A DNA stretch of 54,935 nt, from positions 1-54,935 of the forward strand of contig JAJRUN010000002.1 of assembly GCA_024277755.1 (NCBI GenBank), read 5' to 3'. Each line of letters begins with the position of its first letter. The first letter of the stretch is position 1. The position numbers were made by a program, and so were the translations under genes. This document shows, piece after piece, positions 40,234 through 54,824 of the stretch. The notes beneath the pieces were generated by a model. It was given only the letters and a program-made list of their open reading frames with translations, was not told the origin of the DNA and searched no databases. This stretch comes from Gammaproteobacteria bacterium (GTDB lineage Bacteria; Pseudomonadota; Gammaproteobacteria; Tenderiales; Tenderiaceae).

Positions 40234-42405
40234 ATGGATGTCACCCACATTATTGATCAACTCAACGACCCGCAACGCGCCGCGGTCACCGCGCCGCAGG
40301 GCCAGCAACTGGTACTGGCGGGTGCTGGCAGCGGCAAGACCCGCGTGCTGGTGCACCGTATTGCCTGGATCATGGCGGTGGAAAATATCTCGCCCTACAA
40401 CATCATGGCAGTCACCTTTACCAATAAAGCCGCCACTGAGATGAAACACCGCATCGAGGAACTGCTCGGCCAACCCATCGGTGGCATGTGGGTGGGCACC
40501 TTTCATGGTTTGGCACACCGTTTTCTGCGCGCTCACTGGAAAGAAGCGGCGCTGCCGCAAGCCTTCCAGATCCTCGATTCCGACGACCAATATCGCCTGA
40601 TTCGCCGCCTGCTCAAAAACCTGGAGCTGGACGAATCAAAATGGCCACCGCGCCAGGTGCAGTGGTTCATCAGTGCACGCAAGGATGAAGGCCAGCGCCC
40701 GCAACACATTGACCACCTTAATGACCCCCACAGCAAGCAGATGGTGCGCATCTATCAGGCCTACGAAGACCATTGCTGCAAGGCCGGGCTGGTAGACTTT
40801 GCCGAACTGCTGCTGCGCGCCCACGAACTGCTGCGTGATCGCGCCGACATTCTGCATCACTACCGTGAACGATTTCGCTTTGTGCTGGTGGATGAGTTTC
40901 AGGACACCAACACCATCCAGTATGCCTGGCTGCGACTATTGGCCGGGGAGACGGGCAACCTGTTTATCGTCGGCGATGATGACCAGTCTATTTACGGCTG
41001 GCGCGGTGCCAAAATCGAAAACATTCATAAGTTTAACCAGGATTACCCTAGGACAGAGGTGATCAAACTGGAGCAGAACTATCGCTCCACGGCTAACATC
41101 CTCAAGGCTGCCAACACCCTGATCGACAACAACGATGACCGACTGGGCAAGGAGCTGTGGACCGACGGCGAGGAGGGTGAACTGATTCAACTCTACACCG
41201 CCTTCAATGACCTGGACGAAGCCCGCTTCATCGTTGATCGTATCCGTCAATGGGTTAACGATGGCAATGCCCGCCGCGAAGCCGCCATTCTCTATCGTTC
41301 CAATGCCCAGTCACGGGTGCTTGAGGCCGAACTGCTGGCACAGAGCGTCCCGTACCGTATCTACGGTGGCCAGCGCTTCTTCGAACGCTTGGAAATCAAG
41401 AACGCAATGGCCTACCTGCGCCTGATCGCCAACCGCCATGATGACGGCTCGTTTGAACGGGTGGTCAATACGCCGACACGCGGCATCGGTGATCGCAGCA
41501 TGGCCGCAGTACGTGATTTAGCCCGTGAGCGGGCTATCACCCTGTGGCATGCCGCCGAGATCATCATCAGCGAAAAGCGCCTGCCAGCCCGCGCCACCAA
41601 TGCCATCCAGAGCTTCCTCAACCTGATTATCGCCATCACTAATGAAACCCAGACACTGGAACTGGCGCAGCAAACCGACCACATGCTCAACCGCTGCGGC
41701 CTGCTTGATCACTACAAAAAGGACAAAGGTGAAAAAGGCCAGGCCAGAGTAGATAACCTGGAAGAGCTGGTCAGTGCGGCGCGTGAATTCGAATACGATG
41801 AAGAGACCGCAGAGGCCGTGGACATGCTCACTGCCTTCCTTTCTCATGCAGCACTGGAAGCAGGGGAGGGACAAGGTGACCCATGGGAAGATTGCGTGCA
41901 AATGATGACCCTTCACTCAGCCAAGGGACTGGAATTCCCACTGGTATTCCTTTGCGGCATGGAGGAGGGGTTGTTCCCGCACAAGATGTCGATGGAAGAG
42001 CCCGGTCGGCTGGCTGAAGAACGCCGCCTCTGCTACGTTGGCATCACCCGCGCCCGCCAACTGCTCTATATCACCCACGCCGAAGTCAGGCGTCTGCATG
42101 GTCAGGAGCTTTTTTCACTGCCATCCCGCTTTGTCAGTGAAATCCCCGATGAACTGATACATACCGTGCGCCCTAAAGCCAGCGTCAAACGCACCACCCA
42201 ATCAAGCCGTGGTAATGACTCTGAATATACCCTGGCAGCACCAGAAGGTTTTTATATCGGCCAACGAGTGTTGCATCAAAAGTTCGGCCTAGGAGTATTG
42301 CTCAACCATGAAGGGCAGGGCAGTAGCGCCCGTGTACAGGTTAACTTTGATGATGCTGGCAGCAAGTGGCTGGTAATTGCCTATGCCAATCTTTCACCCT
42401 GCTAA
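40234..42405 (+). CDS. uvrD: DNA helicase II
   Basis: LAGAGSGKTRVL, AVTFTNKAA, GTFH, LVDEFQDTN, VGDDDQSIYGWRGA, LEQNYRS, MTLHSAKGLEF, EERRLCYVGITRA, C-terminal Tudor-like domain. Confidence 0.97.
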   Translation: MDVTHIIDQLNDPQRAAVTAPQGQQLVLAGAGSGKTRVLVHRIAWIMAVENISPYNIMAVTFTNKAATEMKHRIEELLGQPIGGMWVGTFHGLAHRFLRAHWKEAALPQAFQILDSDDQYRLIRRLLKNLELDESKWPPRQVQWFISARKDEGQRPQHIDHLNDPHSKQMVRIYQAYEDHCCKAGLVDFAELLLRAHELLRDRADILHHYRERFRFVLVDEFQDTNTIQYAWLRLLAGETGNLFIVGDDDQSIYGWRGAKIENIHKFNQDYPRTEVIKLEQNYRSTANILKAANTLIDNNDDRLGKELWTDGEEGELIQLYTAFNDLDEARFIVDRIRQWVNDGNARREAAILYRSNAQSRVLEAELLAQSVPYRIYGGQRFFERLEIKNAMAYLRLIANRHDDGSFERVVNTPTRGIGDRSMAAVRDLARERAITLWHAAEIIISEKRLPARATNAIQSFLNLIIAITNETQTLELAQQTDHMLNRCGLLDHYKKDKGEKGQARVDNLEELVSAAREFEYDEETAEAVDMLTAFLSHAALEAGEGQGDPWEDCVQMMTLHSAKGLEFPLVFLCGMEEGLFPHKMSMEEPGRLAEERRLCYVGITRARQLLYITHAEVRRLHGQELFSLPSRFVSEIPDELIHTVRPKASVKRTTQSSRGNDSEYTLAAPEGFYIGQRVLHQKFGLGVLLNHEGQGSSARVQVNFDDAGSKWLVIAYANLSPC

Positions 42406-42427: not shown

Positions 42428-42805
42428 CTATTGCAGCAAGCGTACGACCATTTCAACAAGCTCACTATTTTCAAACGGCTTGGCAATGTAATCTGTCACA
42501 CCCTCATCCGCAGACGAAATCACACTCGGCAAATCGGGTCTTGCGCTCAACATCAAAAATGGCAGCTTAGCAGTTGAAATATTGGCCCGTACTTGCGCCA
42601 AAAGCCCACAACCACTAAGCCGCGGCATATTCCAGTCAGAAATCAACAGGTCATACTCATACTTCTGCAAACACTCCAATGCAGCCTGCCCATCAGAAAC
42701 AATCGTGATATTGGCGCCATTTGTTGGCTTACGTAAAATAGTCTTTACTGCCAACGCAATACTGGCATCATCTTCCGCAATTAAAATATTTTTCTGTTTC
42801 ATCAT
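42428..42805 (-). CDS. Single-domain response regulator (CheY-like)
   Basis: IAEDD, LISDWNMP, MLSAR, IAKPF; receiver residues intact. Confidence 0.9.
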   Translation of the reverse strand: MMKQKNILIAEDDASIALAVKTILRKPTNGANITIVSDGQAALECLQKYEYDLLISDWNMPRLSGCGLLAQVRANISTAKLPFLMLSARPDLPSVISSADEGVTDYIAKPFENSELVEMVVRLLQ

Positions 42806-42820
42806 GACAGCACTCGGTAT

Positions 42821-43201
42821 TTACTGGCGCAACATATCGCATAGCAGCCGCATTAGATTACGTGGACTAAAGGGCTTGACCATGAATTGATCTGCACCAA
42901 CCTCCACAGCCTTTTCCTGATCGGAAACCTGACCATAAGCCGTCAGAATAACAATCTTCATATCATTGAAGCGTGCGTCTGAACGCAGTTTTTCACAGAC
43001 ATCAAAACCAGTCATTCCAGGCATACCCACATCAAGCAAAACCAAATCCGGGCTCAAATAACACGCCTTTTTATATGCCTCTACACCATCAACAGCAATA
43101 ACCGATTCAAAGCCAGCCTTCTCAACCATATAGCAAATTGATTCCCGAATATTTGATTCATCGTCGCATATCAAAATAGTTTTTTTTACATAACCATTCA
43201 T
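42821..43201 (-). CDS. Single-domain response regulator
   Basis: ICDDE, LLDVGMPG, ILTAY, MVKPFSP; 4-nt overlap with the kinase stop. Confidence 0.9.
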   Translation of the reverse strand: MNGYVKKTILICDDESNIRESICYMVEKAGFESVIAVDGVEAYKKACYLSPDLVLLDVGMPGMTGFDVCEKLRSDARFNDMKIVILTAYGQVSDQEKAVEVGADQFMVKPFSPRNLMRLLCDMLRQ

Positions 43202-45123
43202 GCCGTTTTCTCTGAGCCCTCTGCTAAAGGTAGAGTAAAGACAAACCGACTGCCCTTGCCTTGCTCACTCTCCACCCAAATATGACCAGAATAATGCTCA
43301 ACAATATCCTTGCAGATAGCCAGGCCAAGGCCACTACCACCAATTTCACGTGTATCAGAACTATTCACCTGGTGAAAACTTTCAAAAATACTGCCTAGCT
43401 CTTCTTCAGGAACCCCTAACCCGGTATCAGAGACAGAAACCTCAACCTCATTTCCAATTGCAGCCATGGCAACAGTCACGGTACCAGATGCAGTAAACTT
43501 CAAGGCATTGGAGAGCAGATTAACAAACAATTGTTTAAAGCGGTCCACATCAATATTGACCGAAAGTTCACTCTCGGAAAGGGTCATTTCAAACTGCAAC
43601 CCCTTGTCAGAAAATGCCTGAACAAACAGCTCTGCTGACGACATTAATAATTCAGCCACATTAACTCGCCGATCGTTCCAGTCTACCTTGCCCGAATCTA
43701 TTTTCTGCAAATCGAGCAGATCATTTATTAAACGCCCAAGTCGGTCGCTTTCTTCGTTGATAATGGAAAGAAAATGTTTCTGCGAATCAATATCAAGCTC
43801 TTCAATATCATTCTGTAAAATTTCAGCGAATGATTTAATCGATGTCAATGGTGTACGTAATTCGTGAGAAACAACAGAGACAAATTCCGATTTAACTTTA
43901 TTTAAATGCTGTAACTGAAGGTTTGCCTGTTCAAGCTCTGAAGTTCGCAAGCGAACCAGGTCTTCCAGATTATCCATCAGTTGCGCAAGCGAATATGCCT
44001 TTTCTTCCAACTCCTTCTCAACCTTCTTTTGCTCACTAATATCCGTTCTGATCGCTACATACTCGTATGGCACACCGCTCTCATTCATAAATGGCACGAT
44101 GGTAGTATTCACCCAAACCTCTTCACCACATTTTGACTTGTTAAGTATTTCGCCATGCCAGACACCCCCAGCAGAAATTACGTCCCACATGCCCGAAAAA
44201 AAACGACGACTATGAAAGCCGGACTTGATAATGTCATGCTTTTTTCCCAATAATTCGTCACGGCTAAAACCAGTCGCATCAACAAACTTCTGATTGGCAT
44301 AGGTGATACAACCATCAACATCGGTAATACTGACAATCGAGTGTTCATCCATTGCAGACTTCTGCGTATTCAACGCTTTCAAAGTCTTTTTAATTACTGC
44401 ATCCTGTTCAAACAAGTTAACCGACGCCTCGTTCAAAGCAATCCCCAGCTGTTCAATCTCTAGGGAGCGGCTATCAATAGGAATCATTTGGCCATGTTTA
44501 TTTTTTAACTGACCTGCAAAGGTCGCTGCGTCACGCAACATTCTCAACGGCCTACGCATCACCAACTGAATCAAAGCAACCAACATGACGATCATCATAA
44601 GACCATCCATCATATAGTCATACAAGTATTGCTTAGCAATATTTTCTGCTTCAGCCAGGCTATAATTCAAACGCAGCCAGCCAACGACATGAGCACCCTC
44701 AATAGGCTGCCACACCGTTAGCTGACCGGAGACCTGCTTCAGTTGAACATTCACACTTCCAGGAATATCAATCAACTGCTCTTCATAACGCAGCACAGGT
44801 TCACCCGTTTGATCAACAAAAACATCAGCGATCACCCGCCCTTCTACATCAGAAATTTTCACCTGATGCACACCTGGGAAACGCGCCGACCTCAACAACA
44901 ACTGTTCAGTAGAAGAAAAGTCCTGAGTAACAATATGTTCGACACTGGTAACAGCAATATTTTCTGCCAATGCCTGTGCCTGAAGAACAGCCGAATTAAC
45001 CACCCGTATCGCACTTTTATCGGCTTCATGAACCGCAAAGAAAGGGATAATCAGACCAAGCAACAGGCTCACAAGCAGCATTACCTGACGATCAAGCCGT
45101 CGAGGCAACAGTCTCTGCAACAT
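43198..45123 (-). CDS. Membrane sensor histidine kinase (periplasmic domain, HAMP-like, PAS, HisKA, HATPase)
   Basis: Two TM segments, PAS (ITYANQKF..TGFS...MWDVISAGGVWHGEILN), SHELRTPLT, NLLSNALKFT, DTGLG, GSGLGLAI. Confidence 0.92.
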   Translation of the reverse strand: MLQRLLPRRLDRQVMLLVSLLLGLIIPFFAVHEADKSAIRVVNSAVLQAQALAENIAVTSVEHIVTQDFSSTEQLLLRSARFPGVHQVKISDVEGRVIADVFVDQTGEPVLRYEEQLIDIPGSVNVQLKQVSGQLTVWQPIEGAHVVGWLRLNYSLAEAENIAKQYLYDYMMDGLMMIVMLVALIQLVMRRPLRMLRDAATFAGQLKNKHGQMIPIDSRSLEIEQLGIALNEASVNLFEQDAVIKKTLKALNTQKSAMDEHSIVSITDVDGCITYANQKFVDATGFSRDELLGKKHDIIKSGFHSRRFFSGMWDVISAGGVWHGEILNKSKCGEEVWVNTTIVPFMNESGVPYEYVAIRTDISEQKKVEKELEEKAYSLAQLMDNLEDLVRLRTSELEQANLQLQHLNKVKSEFVSVVSHELRTPLTSIKSFAEILQNDIEELDIDSQKHFLSIINEESDRLGRLINDLLDLQKIDSGKVDWNDRRVNVAELLMSSAELFVQAFSDKGLQFEMTLSESELSVNIDVDRFKQLFVNLLSNALKFTASGTVTVAMAAIGNEVEVSVSDTGLGVPEEELGSIFESFHQVNSSDTREIGGSGLGLAICKDIVEHYSGHIWVESEQGKGSRFVFTLPLAEGSEKTA

Positions 45124-45977
45124 CAGAAGCCCTTGTCGAATGGTTTAATCAGCTGCCGAACAACATTGTATTCAGCATCACTGGTCGCATAAAAACCAGT
45201 ATATTTTTTATCCAGCGCCTCGATAATAATTTTATGCTGCTGATTTCTCGAATCCAGATTCAAAAAAGCCTGGCGCATTTTTTCCAGCATTTCCACATCG
45301 ACAAAACCACTTGCAGAAACATTATAAGGAGGCAACTGTGGCGAGGAGTGCAAAATCCTCAAACCTTTTCCTTGCCACTTAAAAGCCGTGGTGTCCTTGA
45401 GAATACCAGCGTCATAAAAACCACGCATAACGGCGCGTGCAATATTATCGTAATGACCAATAAAACTCTGCTTGCCAAGCTGGTCCAAGTTTATTCCCGA
45501 ACCAGCCACGACAGCACGCTGTAACAATGCAGCAGGATCACCAAAAGCAAATGACTTACCAGCAAGATCTTCGATAGTTTTTATCGGGCTATCCTCACGC
45601 ACCACAATCATCAACTGAAACGAGCCTTTACCGCGAGTAACTGTTTTAGCCACCAACTGAGCATCACCCATCTCATGAGCACGTAAATAGGCGACCGGCG
45701 TAAGATAAGCAAGCTGAACTTTTCCATCAGCAACATCAGTAATCGCCTGCTTCATATTCGAAGACAATTTAAGCGCAACAGGTTTCCCTAGCGCCTTACT
45801 CAGATAATCAGTCAACGGACTAAGCCGGCGATGCATAACTGCCGGCGTATCCATCGCGACAGAACCAAATAAAACCCTATCATCAGAGATCTCCGCATGA
45901 CATAACCCGGAAGTCAATCCAGCCAACAGGCCAATCAAAGTCATAATCGATTTTATTGAATACTGATAAACACTCAT
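45123..45977 (-). CDS. PhnD/PtxB-fold periplasmic substrate-binding protein
   Basis: Signal peptide, PLTDYLSKALGKPV, GKVQLAYLTP, IVVREDSPIKTIEDLAGKSFAFGD, GHYDN; stop overlaps the kinase start by 1 nt. Confidence 0.88.
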   Translation of the reverse strand: MSVYQYSIKSIMTLIGLLAGLTSGLCHAEISDDRVLFGSVAMDTPAVMHRRLSPLTDYLSKALGKPVALKLSSNMKQAITDVADGKVQLAYLTPVAYLRAHEMGDAQLVAKTVTRGKGSFQLMIVVREDSPIKTIEDLAGKSFAFGDPAALLQRAVVAGSGINLDQLGKQSFIGHYDNIARAVMRGFYDAGILKDTTAFKWQGKGLRILHSSPQLPPYNVSASGFVDVEMLEKMRQAFLNLDSRNQQHKIIIEALDKKYTGFYATSDAEYNVVRQLIKPFDKGF

Positions 45978-45993
45978 ACTAAAAACCTAGCCT

Positions 45994-46815
45994 TCAAACT
46001 ATTTTTAATGGCAACTCAACGGATAAAACAGTTCCCTTTCCAACATTACTTTCTATCGAAATTCCCCCCTGATAATGAGAAATAATATATCTACTCACAT
46101 ATAAACCGAGCCCTTTTCCCAAAAGAGGAACACCTGTTTTTTTCGAAAAAAAACTTTTCTGTTTTTCATCAGACATACCTATACCTGTATCACTAATAGA
46201 GAAAAACAAACCGTCACCGGAAGTACTGCTTCTCAAATAAAGTTTAATTGATCCTTTGTGAGTAAATGCAAGGGCATTGGAAAGCAGGTTGTAAACAACA
46301 AGTGACAGTCGATCCTTATCAAGCAAAGCACTCAAACTCTCAAGCTCTGTCTCAAAGCTAAAATCCAGCCCTTTTGATTGGCATAAAACAGAAAATGGGC
46401 GAACACACCTTTCAATCACATCAATGACATTCACAACCTCATCATGCCAATGAACAGAATCAGAGCACATATTATGAAACTCAACCACGTTGGATATCAT
46501 ACGACTCAGGCGATCAGCCTCAGAACTAATGATTTTCAAATATTGCTGCCTATCATTATCTGAAATACTTCCACCATCAGACAATAATAATTCTGAAAAC
46601 AACTTCAACCCCGTTAGCGGTGTTTTGAAATCGTGGGCGATTATCGAAACAAAATTCGAATTTTCTTCCGCCAATCGCTTTAAGTCATTACTGGACCTCT
46701 CAAGATTAATTCTGCTTGAATCAAGTTTATCTTCAAGTTCAACAACCTTATCAAGTAACTTTTGATCACTCATCCCAACATTTGACATGTCAGTTGTATT
46801 ACATACCATTTTCAA
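45994..46815 (-). CDS. Soluble sensor-less histidine kinase (short coiled coil, HisKA, HATPase)
   Basis: AHDFKTPLT, YNLLSNALAFT, SDTGIGM, GKGLGL; no TM or input domain. Confidence 0.85.
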   Translation of the reverse strand: MKMVCNTTDMSNVGMSDQKLLDKVVELEDKLDSSRINLERSSNDLKRLAEENSNFVSIIAHDFKTPLTGLKLFSELLLSDGGSISDNDRQQYLKIISSEADRLSRMISNVVEFHNMCSDSVHWHDEVVNVIDVIERCVRPFSVLCQSKGLDFSFETELESLSALLDKDRLSLVVYNLLSNALAFTHKGSIKLYLRSSTSGDGLFFSISDTGIGMSDEKQKSFFSKKTGVPLLGKGLGLYVSRYIISHYQGGISIESNVGKGTVLSVELPLKIV

Positions 46816-46882
46816 TCGTCTCCACCCACCCTACGTTCACGAGGATAAAAGATGTTAAATCATCAACTGACATCCGTTTAAA

Positions 46883-48112
46883 CTATAATACCCGCCTTGC
46901 GGAAGCAACATATTCGTTTGTTTTTTCGATAACAGACATTATCATATCGCTTTTCAGGCCAAGCCTGATTGCCGCCTGTGACGATGTTATTTCCACAGCA
47001 TCTTTACCATCATCACCGCCAAGAATAAGGTTTGCCAGATAAATCACCAACAGTTCGAAACTGATGTTCTCTGAATCAAATGGCGAATGATGAAAATGAA
47101 CTATATCGTAGAATTCATCACCAAAATTCCACGCTCTAATCAACACCGAGCCAAAGTCTGCGTGAAGACTATCCATGATTTCGTCTACAGCTGCCTTATC
47201 AATCTCTGACCAAGTGATTGACAGATCATCAACAATACTGACCAGGAGAAGTTTTCCAACATCATGTAATAAACCTAATAAAAATAATTTATCGGGATTT
47301 GAGTGATTTAACATTATTGCCAGTAATTTTGCACAATAAGCAGTTTCAAGAGAATGCCACCACAGATCTTCAAGAACCTTCTTTAAAATTATATTTTCTG
47401 AAACAAGAACACCTTTATTGGCAAGTGCAACAATATAGTTCTTTGTTTCCGGAAGCCCCAATCGTGTAATGGCCCTTTCAACAGACAGGCAATCTGACGC
47501 ACCACGAACCAAAGGACTATTGGCAATACTAATTAACTTCAGGGCAATTGCTGAGTCCAATTCAACAACCTTGACAATATCTTCAATTGTTACATCACCA
47601 CTTTCAAACAGTTTATTAAAATTTTTCACAACCTTGGGTAACACAGGCAGATTGGTATAACCTTTTTTAAACCTATCAACAACCAGATCAGCCAAACATT
47701 CAGCCTGCACACCACCAAGCAAACCTGCGGTTTCATGCTCAAGCAGGCCTTTGACCTTTAAAACAAACTCCGCCGCTTTAAAAGGCTTAATCAGATAATC
47801 ATCTACACCAGCCTTAGCTGCCACAGCATAGCTATCACGATCACCTCTAGCGGTAAGCATCATAAAAGGGGTTTTTGAAGTATCATTATTTTTTCGCAGA
47901 TCGGAAAGAAGCTCATCACCATTTTTCTTTGGCATATTCCAATCAGAAATAACAAGCTGGTAATCATTGGTTGAGGCCATTTTCCACGCCTCAACTCCAT
48001 TCTTTGCATGATCAACGACATATCCAGGCAGAGCTTTTTTTAAAATCGCCTTGATTGCCATGGCAATATGAATTTCGTCATCTGCAACCAGAATTTTTTT
48101 CACACCACTCAT
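46883..48112 (-). CDS. Response regulator with HDOD output domain
   Basis: REC (VADDE, ISDWNMP, MLTAR, IKPF), then HDOD (LPVLP, DSAIALKLISIANS, AITRLG, WWHS, GLLHDVGK). Confidence 0.9.
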   Translation of the reverse strand: MSGVKKILVADDEIHIAMAIKAILKKALPGYVVDHAKNGVEAWKMASTNDYQLVISDWNMPKKNGDELLSDLRKNNDTSKTPFMMLTARGDRDSYAVAAKAGVDDYLIKPFKAAEFVLKVKGLLEHETAGLLGGVQAECLADLVVDRFKKGYTNLPVLPKVVKNFNKLFESGDVTIEDIVKVVELDSAIALKLISIANSPLVRGASDCLSVERAITRLGLPETKNYIVALANKGVLVSENIILKKVLEDLWWHSLETAYCAKLLAIMLNHSNPDKLFLLGLLHDVGKLLLVSIVDDLSITWSEIDKAAVDEIMDSLHADFGSVLIRAWNFGDEFYDIVHFHHSPFDSENISFELLVIYLANLILGGDDGKDAVEITSSQAAIRLGLKSDMIMSVIEKTNEYVASARRVL

Positions 48113-48121
48113 CCATTAAGC

Positions 48122-50227
48122 CTATAGAACCAAACCAGCCGGCTTCCTGAAAGGCATTTCAATATTAAAAACGGCCCCCTCACCAAGCACACTTTCAACC
48201 CACACTCGCCCATGATAACGATCAACAACGCAACGGGTAATATACAAGCCCAGCCCAGTTCCTTTACCCATATTGGCTGACCCTTGAATCTGCTCAAAAG
48301 GTTGAAATATTTTATCTATCTGTCCCTCATCCATGCCGGAGCCACTATCACAAACAGATAACCTAAAAACCTCACCATCAACCGTTTTCAGTCTATTCAA
48401 TATAACCTTAATAAACCCTTTCTCGGTAAACTTAAGTGAATTTGACAATAAATTATAAACAACCTGTGCCAGCCGGTCTGCATCAATAACCGTGTTAATT
48501 TCATCCTCTTCGCACTCAAACAAAAATTCAAGACCTTTTGACTCAACAGATATTTTAAACGGTTTAATGCAATCTTTTACTACACCAACAACATCAACAT
48601 AGTCATCATTCCACTGCATCTTACCCGCTGATATTTTTTGAAAATCCAGGACATTACTAATCAGTCGGCCAAGACGGTCTGTCTCAGAACTTATGATAGA
48701 GAGGTATTCTTCCTGGGATTGTCTGTCAATATTTTCAAGATCATCCAGCATAATTTCAGAAAACAATTTAATGCCAGTCAACGGTGTTCTAAGGTCGTGT
48801 GAGACAATTGATACAAACTCTGATTTAGCATCACTAAGCTGTTTTAAATCCCTATTAGCCTCCTCCAATTCCGACGTTCTTTCTTTCACCTTTATTTCAA
48901 GGCTTGTGGCAAGATCAAACAATTCGCCATTTAATTTAACCAGGTTTTCTTCTGCCACTTTTACCTCTGTGATATCTGTCAAAGATCCTAGCACCTCTAT
49001 CTGTCCTTTTTTTCTTTCACTCAGCGCCAAAGAATCTTGAATCCAAACATAATCACCATCAGAATTTTTTATCCTATAATCACAAACCATACTCCCGTTT
49101 CTATATAGCTCAGACATCTGCGCATTCAAAAAACGATCATCTTCAATGGCCAGCCTTGCTAACCATTTCCGTTTGTCACCCAAAAGACAACCTGATTCAT
49201 AGCCAATAATTTTTTTTGAATTTTCACTGACAAAGGTCACATCTAAAACAGATCCAGATGAGATACCTGTATAAATTATTGTCGGATTATGATCGAGCGT
49301 ATATTGAAAGTGCGCACGCGTTTTAACTAAATCATCTTCGGTTTTTTCATGCTTATCTATCTCAACCCGGAGTTTCTGGTTGTTTTCCTCTAAAGCTAAA
49401 TGTTGCTCATCAACCTTTTCAAGGCTTCTTTTAAATATCTGCAAGCCACCAGCCAAAGCATCCAGTTCTTTGCCACTTGAAACAACGGGTATATTCACAT
49501 CCTTTTTTCCACTCGAAAGCCTATCAATGACGCCTATCAACGCCCCAATATCATAGGTCAACTTTCTTGACAAAAATATGCTAATAAAAAATGTTCCAAC
49601 AGCCGTAACAGCAAACACAATAATTATTAAGTTAACTACCTCAGTCATGCTCTCAAAATTTTCATCAAGTTCGCCATTAACATCTACACTGACAGCTTTA
49701 AGGCTTTCCTGAAGGGTTACAACCAGATGATTAAAGATACCACTGGCCTCTAGAAGATGTTTCTCAGCCATCGCCGCATCTACTGACGACATCTCGATTG
49801 CATTAATAATAGTCAATTTATAATCTTTGAAATCCTCTGTAACAGCGACATATAAATCCTGCCCATTTTCGATTTCATGTGATAACAAAAGACCATTTAC
49901 CAACAACTCCTCAATACCACTCAGGTGTTCAACCAGGGGCCTCCACAACGCATATATCGTTTCATTGTCTGCCCCATTTTTTGCTATTTTCAACACCTGA
50001 TTCACTTTGACATGTATGTGAGATATACGTGCTGAAACACCGGATAACTGACCAATAACAACCAGGTCATTCTCGGAAATATCTACTAGCCTTTCTTCTT
50101 GCTCACCCATTTTCATAACAAAAAGGGCTAGAATCAACAGCATTGAGATTAGAATAATGACAGGGGAAAATAAGAACTTTCCTCTGAGCGAAGCGGAGTT
50201 TAAATGGTTTATGATTCTGATCAACAC
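48122..50227 (-). CDS. Membrane sensor histidine kinase (four-helix-bundle-like periplasmic domain, HAMP, PAS, HisKA, HATPase)
   Basis: Two TM helices around a helical periplasmic region, HAMP (IDRLSSGKKDVNIP...ELDALA), PAS (DYRIKNSDGDYVWI), SHDLRTPLT, NLLSNSLKFT, GTGLGL. Confidence 0.9.
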   Translation of the reverse strand: MLIRIINHLNSASLRGKFLFSPVIILISMLLILALFVMKMGEQEERLVDISENDLVVIGQLSGVSARISHIHVKVNQVLKIAKNGADNETIYALWRPLVEHLSGIEELLVNGLLLSHEIENGQDLYVAVTEDFKDYKLTIINAIEMSSVDAAMAEKHLLEASGIFNHLVVTLQESLKAVSVDVNGELDENFESMTEVVNLIIIVFAVTAVGTFFISIFLSRKLTYDIGALIGVIDRLSSGKKDVNIPVVSSGKELDALAGGLQIFKRSLEKVDEQHLALEENNQKLRVEIDKHEKTEDDLVKTRAHFQYTLDHNPTIIYTGISSGSVLDVTFVSENSKKIIGYESGCLLGDKRKWLARLAIEDDRFLNAQMSELYRNGSMVCDYRIKNSDGDYVWIQDSLALSERKKGQIEVLGSLTDITEVKVAEENLVKLNGELFDLATSLEIKVKERTSELEEANRDLKQLSDAKSEFVSIVSHDLRTPLTGIKLFSEIMLDDLENIDRQSQEEYLSIISSETDRLGRLISNVLDFQKISAGKMQWNDDYVDVVGVVKDCIKPFKISVESKGLEFLFECEEDEINTVIDADRLAQVVYNLLSNSLKFTEKGFIKVILNRLKTVDGEVFRLSVCDSGSGMDEGQIDKIFQPFEQIQGSANMGKGTGLGLYITRCVVDRYHGRVWVESVLGEGAVFNIEMPFRKPAGLVL

Positions 50228-50374
50228 AGGAATTTGATTTCAGTTTATTAAATGACACAACCGACTCAACAATACAGCTGAGTCATCACAGAACATTTGT
50301 ATGCCGATGTAATCGACTTCAGGTTGAACGCCAGTATTACCGATTCATCTTTCGGCTAATCCCAATTTTCTGGT

Positions 50375-50770
50375 TTAATTCTTTTGACCCAATAGTCTTT
50401 TAATCATTTTCACCAGTTCGTCGCCATTAAACGGTTTAACAATATATTCAACCACTCCCGCATCTTGCGCTGACTTAACACTGTCCAGATCACTGCGCCC
50501 CGTCAGCATTAAAAAAGGTATGCTGCTGGTCTTTGGATTTGCCTTCATATCCCGCAATAGCTCAGCCCCACTTTTCTTTGGCATGTTCCAATCTGAAATG
50601 ACGACATCAATCTTCTTATCCTGCAACACCTTCCAGGCCTCCTCACCATCCATTGCAATCGTCATTTCATTACAGTCAATTTTTTTCCCTAGGATGACTG
50701 AAATGCCCTTGGCCAAAAACCGTTCATCATCAACCAGTAAAATATTTGCCTTATTCGCTGTCATTTCCAC
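50375..50770 (-). CDS. Single-domain response regulator (CheY-like)
   Basis: LVDDE, VISDWNMP, MLTGR, IVKPF. Start may be the ATG at 50764. Confidence 0.9.
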   Translation of the reverse strand: MEMTANKANILLVDDERFLAKGISVILGKKIDCNEMTIAMDGEEAWKVLQDKKIDVVISDWNMPKKSGAELLRDMKANPKTSSIPFLMLTGRSDLDSVKSAQDAGVVEYIVKPFNGDELVKMIKRLLGQKN

Positions 50771-51033: not shown

Positions 51034-52116
51034 ATGAAACGCCGTGACTTTATTAAAAAAGCCGCCGGAGGCGCATTACTTGCGGCTGGCGCAAGCACTG
51101 CTGCACCGGCCATTGCTGCACGTAAACGCTTCAACTGGAAGCTGGTTACCACCTGGCCACCTAATTTCCCTATCTTTCAGGAAGGCGCAGAAAAATTTGC
51201 CAAGGACATCGAAGTGATGAGCGACCGACGCTTGCGCATCAGTGTCTATGCTGGCGGCGAACTGGTGCCTGCCCTGCAAAGCTTCGATGCCGTTTCACAG
51301 GGCGTCGTACAAATGGGCCATGGCGCAGCATATTACTGGGCCGGTAAAGTGCCTGCGGCACAGTTCTTCACTGCAGTACCATTCGGAATGAATGCCCAAG
51401 GCATGAGCGCCTGGCTATACAAGGGCGGCGGCCTCAATCTTTGGCGTGATATCTACAAGCCTTATAATCTGGTGCCCTTTCCCATGGGCAATACCGGCGT
51501 GCAAATGGGCGGCTGGTTTCGCAAAGAGATCAACTCTATTGCCGATCTCAAAGGTCTGAAAATGCGTATTCCAGGCTTGGGGGGCAAGGTTATGGCCAAG
51601 GCTGGCGTTAACCCTGTACTGCTACCCGGTGGTGAAATATATACCGCTCTGGAACGCGGCACCATCGATGCCACTGAGTGGGTTGGCCCCTTCCATGATC
51701 AACGCCTTGGCCTGCACCGTGCAGCTAAAAACTACTACTATCCTGGCTGGCATGAACCAGGCCCTGTGCTTGAACTCACCGTTAACCGTAAAGCCTGGGG
51801 CGAGCTACCGAAGGAATATCAACTGATGATAGAAACGGCTGCCGCTGCGGCCAATATATGGATGCACGCTGAATTCGAAACTAAAAACATGCAGGCATTA
51901 CAACAGCTCAAACAGAACCACAAGGTCAATATATTGGAATTCCCTGACGACGTGATTAAGCAGCTCAAGCGTCTGACCCATGAAACACTGGAACAGGAAG
52001 CCGCCAAGGACCCGACTTTTCGCCAGGTCTATCAAGCCTACAAATCATTTGCCCAATCAAATGATGCCTGGAGTGATATTTCTGACGCCGCCTATGCCAA
52101 GGCTCTCAAGCTATAG
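51034..52116 (+). CDS. dctP: TRAP transporter substrate-binding protein, TakP-like, Tat-exported
   Basis: MKRRDFIKK twin-arginine signal, WKLVTTWP, YAGGELVP, YYWAGK, GNTGVQMGGWF, KMRIPGLGG, EWVGP, YYYPGWHEPG. Confidence 0.93.
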   Translation: MKRRDFIKKAAGGALLAAGASTAAPAIAARKRFNWKLVTTWPPNFPIFQEGAEKFAKDIEVMSDRRLRISVYAGGELVPALQSFDAVSQGVVQMGHGAAYYWAGKVPAAQFFTAVPFGMNAQGMSAWLYKGGGLNLWRDIYKPYNLVPFPMGNTGVQMGGWFRKEINSIADLKGLKMRIPGLGGKVMAKAGVNPVLLPGGEIYTALERGTIDATEWVGPFHDQRLGLHRAAKNYYYPGWHEPGPVLELTVNRKAWGELPKEYQLMIETAAAAANIWMHAEFETKNMQALQQLKQNHKVNILEFPDDVIKQLKRLTHETLEQEAAKDPTFRQVYQAYKSFAQSNDAWSDISDAAYAKALKL

Positions 52117-52129
52117 CAGGCTATTAAAT

Positions 52130-52178
52130 CTGGAAAACACAGTTGGGCGATGCCTGCCGCCCAACTGAGGTTTTCCAG
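52130..52178. terminator. Long interrupted hairpin downstream of dctP
   Basis: CTGGAAAAC-a-CAGTTGGGCG-atgcctgc-CGCCCAACTG-ag-GTTTTCCAG; no clean U tract, so it may be a stabiliser rather than a terminator. Confidence 0.45.
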
Positions 52179-52294
52179 CTTAATAATTAACATTAAAGCT
52201 CCTCGGGTCCCGCCCCGATATCTAGGCAAGGGCTATCTAGCGTTTATACCTACCTATTTAAGCCTGTTTATATCGTCCACAAGGAGAACCGGTT

Positions 52295-52795
52295 TTGACC
52301 CTTAAAACACCTCGCATCAGCCATATGATCCAACAGTTCATCAGGATGACCCTGCTAATCCTGATGTTCAGCAGTTCAGCCAGTTATGGATCTGCTTCTG
52401 GCGGTGGTGGCGGAGCCGCCATTGCCGATGGCAAAGCCAATTACCTCACCCTCGAACCCGCCTTTGTGGTCAACATCATTGATGGCAACCGGATGCGCTT
52501 CATGCAGCTTGCAATTGATTTAATGTCTATGGACAGCCATGCCATTCAAGCAGTTCAGGACCACCGTGCCCCCATACGCCATGAGCTGCTGATGCTATTT
52601 GCTCACCGCGACATTTCCGAGGTTATGGGTTTGAAGCAACGCGAAAAACTGCGTCAGGATGCGCTAGAGAAAATTCAAGAGACTTTGCTCAAATATGCCG
52701 ACATTGATTCCACAGGGACGGCGGAAACAGAAGACGGGCACAAATACCCTACCGGCGTACAAGAGGTACTGTTTACCAATTTCGTCATCCAATAA
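52295..52795 (+). CDS. FliL-family protein (orphan)
   Basis: N-terminal hydrophobic segment, YLTLEPAFVVNI, IRHELLMLF, REKLRQDALEKIQ, VQEVLFTNFVIQ; AAGGAG RBS before TTG 52295. Confidence 0.85.
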   Translation: MTLKTPRISHMIQQFIRMTLLILMFSSSASYGSASGGGGGAAIADGKANYLTLEPAFVVNIIDGNRMRFMQLAIDLMSMDSHAIQAVQDHRAPIRHELLMLFAHRDISEVMGLKQREKLRQDALEKIQETLLKYADIDSTGTAETEDGHKYPTGVQEVLFTNFVIQ

Positions 52796-52810
52796 CCGCT
52801 CTGATCAGGC

Positions 52811-54133
52811 TCAGTAGTCCTTCATCTCATTCATCAGATCAGGCAACCACTGCACAGTGTCAGGGAAGAGAATGATTCCCCCCAGCACCACAACCTGAAT
52901 CAACACAAATGGAATCACACCTTTATAAATATGCTGAATCCTGACCTCGGGCGGTGCTGCCGCCTTGAGATAAAACAACGAAAAGCCAAATGGCGGCGTC
53001 AAAAATGAGGTTTGCAGATTCATAGCAATCAGCACTGCAAACCAAAGCATATTGATATCCATTAATTCTGCAATCGGCGCCAAAATCGGCACAACAATAA
53101 AACAGATCTCAAGGAAGTCGAGAAAAAAGCCCAACACAAAAATCAGCAACATACTCACCGCGATAAAGGCCCACTCACCGCCGGGCAGCGCCAGCATAAA
53201 ATCTTCCACGACCAGATCACCGCCCATGGATCGAAACACCAAACCAAAAGCGGTGGCACCGATCAAGATCATAAACACCATACTGGTGAGTCGAGCAGTC
53301 TGTCGTGATGCATCCTTGACATTTTCCAGACTAAGACGCTTGCGCATGGCCGATAACAGCATTGCCCCCAAGGCCCCAACGGCTGCCGACTCAGTGGGCG
53401 AGGTAACCCCAAAAAATATCGATCCCAGCACCGCAAACACCAGCAACAGCGGCGGCAACAAGCTTTTAAGCACCTGTTTACCCAAACCGGAGGCATCAGG
53501 CTCTACCGGCATCGCCGGCGCCATCTCCGGCTTGAAAAAGGCGATTGCCAGGATATAGAGCATAAACGCGGCCACCAACAGCAAGCCCGGCACCACGGCG
53601 GCGGCAAACAACTCACCCACCGGCACACCAATCACATCCCCCAACAAAATCAGGATAATACTGGGCGGGATAATTTGCCCCAACGTGCCAGACGCAGCAA
53701 TGGTGCCGGAAGCCAGTCCCGTGTCATAACCACGCTTAAGCATGGCAGGCAGGGCGATAATCCCCATGGTTACCACCGTGGCACCCACAACGCCAGTGGT
53801 CGCCGCCAACAAGGCCCCCACCGCAACAATGGAAACTGCCAAACCACCACGTAACCGGCCAAACAGCCGCGCCATGGTCTCCAGCAGCTCCTCTGCCAGG
53901 CCGGATTTCTCCAGCATCACCCCCATAAAGACAAACAGCGGCACCGCCAGCAGGGTGAAATTGGTCATGATTCCCCAGACCCGCATCGGCAGCAGCTGAA
54001 ATTCCTGCCAGCCAAGAAACCAGCCACCAAAGCCCATCGCCACCGCCCCCAGGGTGAAGGCTACCGGAAAACCGATCAGCAACAGTGCAATCGCCACCGC
54101 AAACATGATAATTGCCCAATATTCCATTTCCAT
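52811..54133 (-). CDS. dctM: TRAP transporter large permease
   Basis: GFPVAFTL, LLAVPLFVFMG, GTIAASGTLGQIIPPS, TPTESAAVGA, NLQTSFLTPPFGFSLFYL. Confidence 0.94.
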   Translation of the reverse strand: MEMEYWAIIMFAVAIALLLIGFPVAFTLGAVAMGFGGWFLGWQEFQLLPMRVWGIMTNFTLLAVPLFVFMGVMLEKSGLAEELLETMARLFGRLRGGLAVSIVAVGALLAATTGVVGATVVTMGIIALPAMLKRGYDTGLASGTIAASGTLGQIIPPSIILILLGDVIGVPVGELFAAAVVPGLLLVAAFMLYILAIAFFKPEMAPAMPVEPDASGLGKQVLKSLLPPLLLVFAVLGSIFFGVTSPTESAAVGALGAMLLSAMRKRLSLENVKDASRQTARLTSMVFMILIGATAFGLVFRSMGGDLVVEDFMLALPGGEWAFIAVSMLLIFVLGFFLDFLEICFIVVPILAPIAELMDINMLWFAVLIAMNLQTSFLTPPFGFSLFYLKAAAPPEVRIQHIYKGVIPFVLIQVVVLGGIILFPDTVQWLPDLMNEMKDY

Positions 54134-54681
54134 TATTGGGCCTCCTGCGTTGATGCTTCGGGCTTGAAAATTGTTTGCAGGCTACGAATAGATAGGGATA
54201 ACCCTTGCAAGGCCAGCAATACAAACCCCGCCGGGATTATCGCCTTCAGCAACCAACGGTAAGGCAGCCCCCCCGGATCGGGCGAAGATTCAGCCCAACC
54301 GAAAGACATCTCAACAAAGGGTACAGCGCTGATAATCATCAGCACACAAAAGGGCAGCAGCATGAACAGACAACCAAGCAGATTAACCATGGCCTGACGT
54401 CGCCGCGTCATCCATTTGGATTGATAAAAGACATCAACCCGGACATGTTCATCATGCTTGAGGGTATTCGCAGCGCCAAGCAGAAAGATCAGCGCAAAGA
54501 TATGCCACTCCAGCTCCTGCAAGGCCACCGAACCGGCTTGAAACAGATAGCGCATACCGACGTCGTAACAAACCAGCAGCACCAGCGCCACCACCAGCCA
54601 GGCGGTGAGACGGCCAAACCATTCATTGAGCCGGTCGATAACATTCGCCAGCTTGTCGAGTTGTTTCAGCAAAGCATTCAT
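54133..54681 (-). CDS. dctQ: TRAP transporter small permease
   Basis: Four TM helices, LQELEWH, EHVRVDVFY, SPDPGGLP; stop overlaps the dctM start. Start uncertain (ATG 54681 or TTG 54702). Confidence 0.92.
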   Translation of the reverse strand: MNALLKQLDKLANVIDRLNEWFGRLTAWLVVALVLLVCYDVGMRYLFQAGSVALQELEWHIFALIFLLGAANTLKHDEHVRVDVFYQSKWMTRRRQAMVNLLGCLFMLLPFCVLMIISAVPFVEMSFGWAESSPDPGGLPYRWLLKAIIPAGFVLLALQGLSLSIRSLQTIFKPEASTQEAQ

Positions 54682-54824
54682 ATCTAAAGGAGTCAGAGGC
54701 AAGAGGAATGCCGCGCATTCTACCGGCTCAACCCGGCGCTTAGAAGTAAATCAGGGTATTTGTTTGTTCTTATTGTTAACCCTAAAAATATAGAGAAGAC
54801 CAATAACAACAAAAACAATAACTT

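Follow-up and report, generated by a model that had tools for sequence, protein, structure and literature searches.

How does a gene cluster with three histidine kinases (HK) and four receivers (REC), and no transcription factor among them, pass on its signals? The question arises from an eight-gene cassette at positions 42428-50770 of a 54,935-nucleotide stretch of DNA (the window; contig JAJRUN010000002.1 of GenBank assembly GCA_024277755.1, here called C114) from a Tenderia-like gammaproteobacterium. The source is a metagenome-assembled genome (MAG), 85% complete. A first-pass annotation, made from the letters of the window, had read the cassette as one acquired, self-contained multi-input phosphorelay with a post-translational output. 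We favour, with moderate confidence in the explanation as a whole, another account. The cluster would consist of two adjacent paralogous two-component modules, A (REC1-HK1-REC-HDOD) and B (HK2-SBP-HK3-REC3-REC4, with SBP a solute-binding protein), with a DNA-binding regulator acting in trans from elsewhere in the genome and an HDOD domain whose output is metal-dependent or metal- or redox-gated.

Gene content and composition of the cassette

The features of the cassette, in the order of transcription, are as follows.

REC1, 50375..50770, minus strand: single-domain CheY-like receiver with the motif SDWNMP, gene 1 of module A (Pfam Response_reg, 1.4e-25).
Spacer between REC1 and HK1, 50228..50374: 147 bp, the site of a His_Phos_1-like gene in relatives.
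HK1, 48122..50227, minus strand: transmembrane (TM) segment, periplasmic region of ~160 amino acids, TM segment, weak HAMP, PAS_3, HisKA and HATPase_c (Pfam); the kinase of module A.
REC-HDOD, 46883..48112, minus strand: CheY-like receiver followed by HDOD (Pfam HDOD 3.2e-40, 138 bits; REC 8.6e-25, 87.5 bits).
HK2, 45994..46815, minus strand: soluble, sensor-less kinase core of 273 amino acids, gene 1 of module B (Pfam HisKA and HATPase_c alone).
SBP, 45123..45977, minus strand: secreted PhnD-fold solute-binding protein (PF12974 Phosphonate-bd, 1.4e-49).
HK3, 43198..45123, minus strand: TM segment, sCache-like periplasmic domain, TM segment, PAS, HisKA and HATPase_c (domains from Pfam; sensor fold from a model).
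REC3, 42821..43201, minus strand: single-domain receiver with DVGMPGMTG (Pfam REC, 8.8e-27).
REC4, 42428..42805, minus strand: single-domain CheY-like receiver (Pfam REC, 5.9e-23).

All eight open reading frames (ORFs) are intact and co-directional, and the ORF calls and Pfam returned the architecture, domains and coordinates that the first-pass annotation had given. SBP and HK3 overlap by 1 bp and HK3 and REC3 by 4 bp; the remaining gaps measure 9-147 bp. The three kinases score above the Pfam gathering threshold for HisKA and HATPase_c, and their H-boxes (SHDLRTPL, AHDFKTPL and SHELRTPL), as well as the DRL.R.I and W.D motifs reported earlier, match the sequence exactly. The TM segments of HK1 comprise residues 19-37 and 200-218. 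A "4HB-like" label once attached to the HK1 sensor was not reproduced by Pfam. No TM segment was predicted for HK2. All four receivers matched PF00072, with DD/ED, the D of SDWNMP or LDVGMP, T/S in (L/M)(T/S)A, and KPF.

The early inventory also held in what it left out. The eight proteins gave no Pfam match to a transcription factor family (helix-turn-helix/Trans_reg_C), Hpt, CheA/CheW, GGDEF/EAL or a transposase, and Pfam detected neither ABC permease/ATPase genes nor a Sigma54_activat domain in the cassette. For Hpt (PF01627) the absence applies to all eight proteins at E<=0.01, and the intergenic gaps are too short for a further gene. Since the HPt step is lacking, the cassette is not a phosphorelay, and we dropped that part of the initial description. 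A scan for promoters and terminators gave counts not above those of shuffled sequence.

The cassette is AT-rich, as had been proposed. Its GC content is 0.410, compared to a genome mean of 0.496 (standard deviation 0.025) over 8.3-kb windows, and is the lowest of any such window in the 2.65-Mb assembly. The spot counts of 20/60 (48361-48420) and of 33/60 in uvrD (41161-41220) were reproduced exactly. HK1 (0.387) and HK2 (0.366) have the lowest GC content among the 29 kinase genes of the genome, with other accessory kinases reaching down to 0.41.

The slot between uvrD and dctP holds zero, four, eight or nine genes

The cassette lies between uvrD and dctP. Across the genus, identity is 84-94% for the flanking genes uvrD, dctP, fliL and dctM, and the slot was found in four states. 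It is empty in three genomes (G003, G004 and G005), with a uvrD-dctP distance of 97-293 bp. Two genomes (G001 and G007) and the metagenome contig L019 carry four genes, encoding REC1, a secreted His_Phos_1-like protein, HK1 and REC-HDOD. Nine genes are present in G002 and metagenome contig L102. The present genome has eight, with the 147-bp spacer instead of the His_Phos_1-like gene. REC1 orthologues, 70-89% identical, occupy the same slot in G001, G002, G007 and L102, and orthologues of HK1 are present in all carriers of module A. We divide the cluster into modules A and B because the slot holds zero, four, eight or nine genes across the genus: module A occurs without module B in the three four-gene carriers (G001, G007 and L019), and module B occurs without module A in a sister genus. 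The solitary occurrence of module A contradicts the view of the cassette as one unit.

The protein encoded between REC1 and HK1 in all of the relatives is secreted, has 202 amino acids and matches His_Phos_1 in Pfam (2.8e-5; for example L014:6336-6944). With the G002 protein as the query, tblastn located it between REC1 and HK1 in L102, L013, L015 and L019 at 56-75% identity. The same search of the present genome gave no credible match, at the slot or elsewhere. This protein may be a periplasmic partner of HK1.

On a tree of the flanking proteins the slot states are patchy. G001, with four genes, nests among carriers of eight or nine, and G004, with an empty slot, is the sister of G007, with four. 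This distribution argues for repeated loss within the genus. In each carrier the flanks exceed the cassette by 8-11 points of GC content, at a genome GC of 50% as well as 65%, and the carriers have diverged to a synonymous distance (dS) above 1. With an offset so stable across species at dS>1, AT-richness is no mark of recent acquisition, and any transfer is old. Alignment of occupied with empty sites extended over only ~70 bp, promoter-proximal to dctP. No integrase, transposase, tRNA or boundary repeat was seen at the borders in this alignment or by Pfam. Of the hallmarks of a horizontal island, the cassette shows deviant composition and a presence/absence polymorphism at one fixed place; mobility genes and repeats were not seen. 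The slot is an indel-prone, AT-rich, accessory island-like site. The proposal that the cassette had been acquired therefore survives as to its accessory, island-like behavior (four slot states and low GC), but not as to a recent arrival.

All eight genes are under purifying selection. The ratio of nonsynonymous to synonymous divergence (dN/dS) ranges from 0.05 to 0.33, with REC1 at about 0.05 and HK2 at 0.21-0.33. The amino-acid divergence (dN) of the cassette genes is 2-6 times that of the flanks. Tenderia is an electroautotroph of biocathodes, and the cassette is a variable accessory sensor in this genus, not one of its core features. A literature search on Tenderia two-component systems returned nothing relevant. 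Note that on the dctP side (window 51034-54702) the genus has a TRAP transporter, with dctP on one strand, dctQ and dctM on the opposite strand and fliL wedged between, whether the slot is filled or empty.

Paralogy of the kinases and receivers

We placed all 29 HisKA kinases of the genome in one tree with their relatives, and its 54 receiver domains in another. HK1, HK2 and HK3 with their orthologues formed a single clade (support 93/96), apart from the other 26 kinases of the genome. The local kinase paralogy suspected from the H-boxes is thus borne out. The HK1 and HK2 clades are sisters (100/100). HK3 groups with kinases of operons in other genomes that have the order SBP-HK-REC-REC-HDOD (external operons, see below). 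A recent origin of HK2 as a junk duplicate of HK1 was ruled out, as HK2 has orthologues in the sister genus.

Receiver duplication was upheld in part. REC1, the receiver of REC-HDOD and REC4 fall, together with the receivers of external REC-HDOD proteins, into one clade (SH-aLRT 95), apart from ~50 others. REC4 is nearest to the receiver halves of the external REC-HDOD proteins. REC3 is of another lineage; its separate clade (SH-aLRT 99) includes the stand-alone receivers encoded behind the kinases of the external operons. The alpha-1 helices of REC-HDOD and REC4 are similar. In the alpha-1 helix of the kinase DHp domain, HK1 and HK2 share K-L-F/Y and the HK3 family has K-S-F, a difference too weak for assigning partners.

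An orphan OmpR-family regulator at another locus

In a sister genus of the same family (G010, G013 and G014), the genes of module B stand in the order OmpR-family regulator-HK2-SBP-HK3-(REC3)-REC4, beside uvrB and an aminotransferase gene. The regulator, consisting of REC and Trans_reg_C, is encoded directly ahead of the HK2-like kinase. HK2 and HK3 of these clusters are orthologues of the kinases in the window (99/97 and 98/95 in the kinase tree). The present genome encodes a regulator 69.5% identical to that of the sister genus at C33:17837-18499 (L231:5837-6499), which likewise adjoins an aminotransferase gene and uvrB. No kinase gene lies next to it; the genes around it encode a GspH-like pseudopilin, an ABC exporter and PNPase. 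Within Tenderia, orthologues at 63% identity or above were found only in the present genome (G000) and in G002, both of which carry module B. None was found in G001, G004, G005 or G007.

The simplest reading of this orthology and synteny, together with a small co-occurrence sample, is that the block from HK2 to REC4 relocated to the uvrD slot from a place beside uvrB, without the regulator, which stayed there. Because an OmpR-family regulator heads the sister-genus clusters and its orthologue stands alone in this genome, the cassette is probably not self-contained, and a transcriptional output in trans probably exists besides the HDOD output. Thus, the statement that the cassette is self-contained and without DNA-binding output is accurate for the eight genes themselves, but the orphan at C33 makes it doubtful for the system. 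The displaced factor was revealed only by comparison with the sister genus. As a general caution, a kinase cluster without a transcription factor can have one left elsewhere after rearrangement.

The binding protein and HK3

We next consider the input of module B. SBP has an N-terminal hydrophobic segment that suggests a signal peptide, and its nearest solved relatives are PtxB, ArrX and AioX. SBP and its family, in which FGDPAALLQRA is conserved, lack four residues at the STSS anion-binding loop of PtxB. A phosphonate- or phosphite-type anion in the usual binding mode is therefore an improbable ligand.

The N-terminal part of HK3 (residues 1-255) was modeled with AlphaFold2 (predicted local distance difference test, pLDDT, 79.4) as a long helix and, after it, a sheet of five or six strands. 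The top Foldseek matches of this model were WalK, CitA, vpHK1S, Tlp3 and other Cache/PDC sensor domains, and the periplasmic domain is accordingly predicted to be sCache-like. Kinases encoded after SBP homologues share these first 255 amino acids (TM segment, periplasmic domain, TM segment and linker) with HK3 at 31-42% identity, regardless of whether the kinase is plain, hybrid or hybrid with HPt. Note that one such SBP-linked kinase (in L140) does carry Hpt.

AioX, which belongs to PF12974, and AioS, with an sCache-like ligand-binding domain, are a described precedent for the pairing of a binding protein with a kinase (PMC8050422, PMC5908839). In view of this precedent, a PF12974 SBP without a transporter next to an sCache-like kinase is best read as an AioX/AioS-style binding-protein-dependent sensor. 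We propose that SBP is a co-sensor of HK3, a pairing with which the overlap of the SBP stop and the HK3 start is also in keeping.

A second copy of SBP, 49% identical, is encoded elsewhere in the genome (C121:2553-5821; L225), where it is translationally coupled to a GGDEF-EAL protein. The N-terminal sensor of that protein is 27% identical to that of HK3 and gives a weak match to sCache_3_2.

Putative metal-site residues in the HDOD domain

HDOD domains are among the commonest bacterial signaling output domains, with no agreed function, and in the first-pass annotation that of REC-HDOD was taken to be non-enzymatic. Its residues H253, H283-D284, H317 and H341-H342 are kept, being invariant or at least 90% conserved in the family alignment, with H342 found in the window protein and its closest relatives. 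These five His and one Asp align with the His/Asp residues of 3HC1, an HDOD structure from Geobacter, at its H, HD, H and HH motifs; two irons are bound there by five His and one Asp (PMC12075610). Most of them are missing from 3I7A and from SadB, a YbaK-HDOD protein of P. aeruginosa that has lost most pocket histidines and functions as a ligand-free proteolysis adaptor (PMC12075610). The alignment with the di-iron site makes a non-enzymatic HDOD an unsafe premise here; judged by its residues, the domain may not be inert.

An AlphaFold2 model of full-length REC-HDOD (pLDDT 86.7) matched in Foldseek the HDOD structures 3I7A, 3HC1 and SadB, as well as CheY, and nothing else; the E value for the fold shared with SadB and 3HC1 was 2e-8. 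No match to PF13487 (HD_5) was obtained, and H341-H342 is followed by SPFDSENISF, with no GYP. The protein is therefore not an HD-GYP enzyme. DVU0330, a REC-HDOD protein that keeps the HD residues, has weak phosphodiesterase activity on bis-p-nitrophenyl phosphate (bis-pNPP), and GsmR, which lacks that histidine, has no phosphodiesterase activity (PMC4114195).

A compact operon in other genomes

A metagenome scan with SBP returned 80 loci at 58-83% identity. The order SBP, HK3-like kinase, REC3-like receiver and REC-HDOD was found in at least 12 metagenome contigs (L107, L109, L111, L114, L116, L123, L131, L144, L146, L149, L153 and L155; also L017 and L182). An additional REC4-like receiver is present in L017 and L149. 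In the window, REC4 occupies the place after REC3 that REC-HDOD holds in the external operons. Two contigs show the order without SBP: L181 with a PAS kinase and then REC-HDOD, and L183 with PAS-HK-REC-REC-HDOD. Other SBP homologues precede GGDEF-EAL proteins.

The REC-HDOD family is narrow, with ~13 sequences above 48% identity and ~17 at 30-38%; the orthologue in Ca. Tenderia electrophaga (G007) is Tel_14835. A profile scan of the contigs with the REC-HDOD alignment yielded, among the matches listed, mostly receiver-only or HDOD-only proteins, and full-length ones only in L021-L023 and L027, with differing neighborhoods. A narrow, conserved family with a defined kinase, periplasmic co-sensor and small receiver is a tractable case for asking what phosphorylation of a REC-HDOD protein changes.

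A more far-reaching proposal, which we regard as unlikely, is that SBP, sCache kinase, small receiver and REC-HDOD constitute a distinct widespread pathway ending in a phosphorylation-gated di-iron HDOD domain, split over two modules here and kept as a compact operon in the contigs named above. If so, the HDOD domain would be a true enzymatic or redox-sensing output and not an inert scaffold. This family would then be the first case of a metal-binding HDOD domain placed in a defined path from input to output, with the stand-alone receiver as a competing sink.

Three observations on these contigs are recorded here in their own right. The HK3 orthologues of roughly half the external operons have a whole receiver domain (residues ~565-676) inserted inside HATPase_c, an unusual architecture in which positions 1-34 of the domain's hidden Markov model precede the insert and 35-110 follow it (for example L131:9866-12259, L144:9812-12115 and L149:9765-12164). 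Downstream of the PAS kinase, small receiver and REC-HDOD, the same run of genes in L183:2801-9078 encodes an HD-GYP protein (DUF3391-HD_5) and a hybrid kinase, which hints at a link of this HDOD family to turnover of cyclic di-GMP (c-di-GMP). L017:10565-19236, from an organism with 35% GC, carries dprA downstream of the compact operon, together with a block of phage-like genes (integrase, D5 primase, capsid and minor tail protein).

Proposed working of the two modules

For the phosphotransfer partners, the ligand and the role of the HDOD domain we infer the following scheme. In module A, HK1 would phosphorylate the adjacent REC-HDOD and also the small receiver REC1. The HDOD domain would respond with a metal-dependent activity or a metal- or redox-gated protein interaction, either being more likely than a role as an inert scaffold. 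In module B, SBP would dock on the sCache-like domain of HK3 and report whether ligand is bound. HK3 would phosphorylate REC3, its conserved and translationally coupled partner, and may also phosphorylate receivers of the REC4/REC-HDOD type. REC4 could compete with REC-HDOD as a phosphate sink or serve as a connector, and the small receivers would generally be sinks or connectors. HK2 would serve the orphan OmpR-family regulator and perhaps share partners with HK1.

Several points weigh against this two-module explanation. The ligand class of SBP seems not to be assignable from its likeness to PtxB, as the STSS loop is lacking, and the HDOD metal ligands are derived from a sequence alignment and the published description of 3HC1 rather than from coordinates. 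The lack of the His_Phos_1-like gene may stem from the assembly of the MAG rather than from a true loss. As to the regulator, its co-occurrence with module B was scored in seven genomes, among which are several incomplete MAGs, and a relative at 55% identity is present in G003, where module B is lacking. HK2 is the least constrained gene of the cassette and could be losing function. Its DHp alpha-1 residues differ between Tenderia and the sister genus, so the pairing of kinase and regulator may have drifted.

Of the alternatives, the original model survives best, although we consider it unlikely. It holds that three kinases act on four receivers in a single acquired and self-contained phosphorelay, with a post-translational output through a non-enzymatic HDOD domain and the small receivers. 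The model accounts for a cassette that contains no DNA-binding, HPt, Che or c-di-GMP domain and has the lowest GC in the genome. Cross-talk is plausible among paralogous kinases and receivers, given also the similar alpha-1 helices of REC-HDOD and REC4, and HDOD proteins such as SadB are ligand-free adaptors (PMC12075610). However, the three relatives with module A alone and the sister genus with module B alone argue against a single system, HPt is absent, and the regulator of the sister genus has its orphan orthologue in this genome. In addition, the di-metal residues that SadB has lost are kept here.

Could the cassette control motility, with REC1, REC4 and REC-HDOD acting on the flagellar motor or the expression of flagellar genes? 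The best matches of the receivers among solved structures and in NCBIfam are CheY, the SDWNMP motif is accompanied by an aromatic residue at the position of CheY Y106, and effects on motility have been reported for GsmR, PSPTO_4229 and further HDOD proteins (PMC4114195, PMC11813219). The CheY-like receiver fold is generic, however, and CheA, CheW and methyl-accepting chemotaxis protein (MCP) partners were found neither in the cassette nor, like flagellar genes, in the neighborhoods of the external operons. The gene fliL lies 1.5 kb away, but it occupies the same place in genomes with an empty slot; this linkage is uninformative and was dropped as evidence. We judge a role in motility distinctly improbable.

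That the cassette is a dispensable, slowly decaying accessory island of redundant signaling genes with no coherent function here is very improbable: repeated loss in the genus, the lost His_Phos_1-like gene, divergence 2-6 times that of the flanks with a raised dN/dS of HK2, and an AT bias compatible with weak expression would fit it, but dN/dS is well below 1 for every gene, none of the eight ORFs is broken, the catalytic His, Asp and ATP-binding motifs are in place, and the genes stand in the same order in G002 and L102, those of module B even across genera. A cluster of decaying pseudogenes is ruled out by the intact ORFs and dN/dS values of 0.05-0.33.

Comparison with known systems

Several described systems stand close to the cassette. 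Module B most resembles AioX-AioS-AioR and the ArrX and ArxX systems, in which the gene just ahead of an sCache-like membrane kinase likewise encodes a PF12974 binding protein that has a signal peptide but lacks an ABC transporter. SBP has low identity to both AioX and ArrX (E 1e-9 to 1e-15), and the PtxB anion loop is deleted here. HK3 differs from the AioXSR arrangement in its extra cytoplasmic PAS domain and in its presumed partners downstream, which are single-domain receivers and REC-HDOD instead of the sigma-54 activator AioR. Unlike the arsenic oxyanion systems, the cassette has no arsenic genes nearby. TorT-TorS and LuxP-LuxQ are alike in logic, with a periplasmic binding protein as the ligand receptor that docks on the kinase (PMC8050422). 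However, TorS has an HBM-like and LuxQ a dCache-like sensor, their binding proteins have other folds, and both kinases are hybrids that feed HPt relays, whereas the cassette is without HPt.

For module A, the closest parallels are GsmR of Xanthomonas and DVU0330 of Desulfovibrio vulgaris, each a receiver joined to PF08668 HDOD and encoded beside a histidine kinase. DVU0330 shares the retained HD residues. GsmR has lost the catalytic His, whereas the family in the window keeps five His and one Asp. Unlike both, this REC-HDOD family is narrow, and its genes accompany those of an SBP-dependent kinase and a small receiver. SadB and 3HC1 have the same HDOD fold; 3HC1 is a stand-alone domain, while the HDOD domain in the window is under receiver control.

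The layout as a whole recalls multikinase networks built on single-domain receivers, such as DivK with DivJ and PleC, MrrA in Caulobacter, and SdrG with the Pak kinases in Sphingomonas. In these networks paralogous kinases are found beside stand-alone receivers that act as hubs, sinks or allosteric kinase regulators, and the outputs are CtrA and PhyR. The likeness is one of layout, with no sequence orthology claimed, and the end points here would be HDOD and a putative orphan OmpR-family regulator. Every type of component in the cassette is known. What is new is the conserved unit of SBP, sCache kinase, receiver and REC-HDOD, its split and duplicated form in Tenderia, and the displaced transcription factor.

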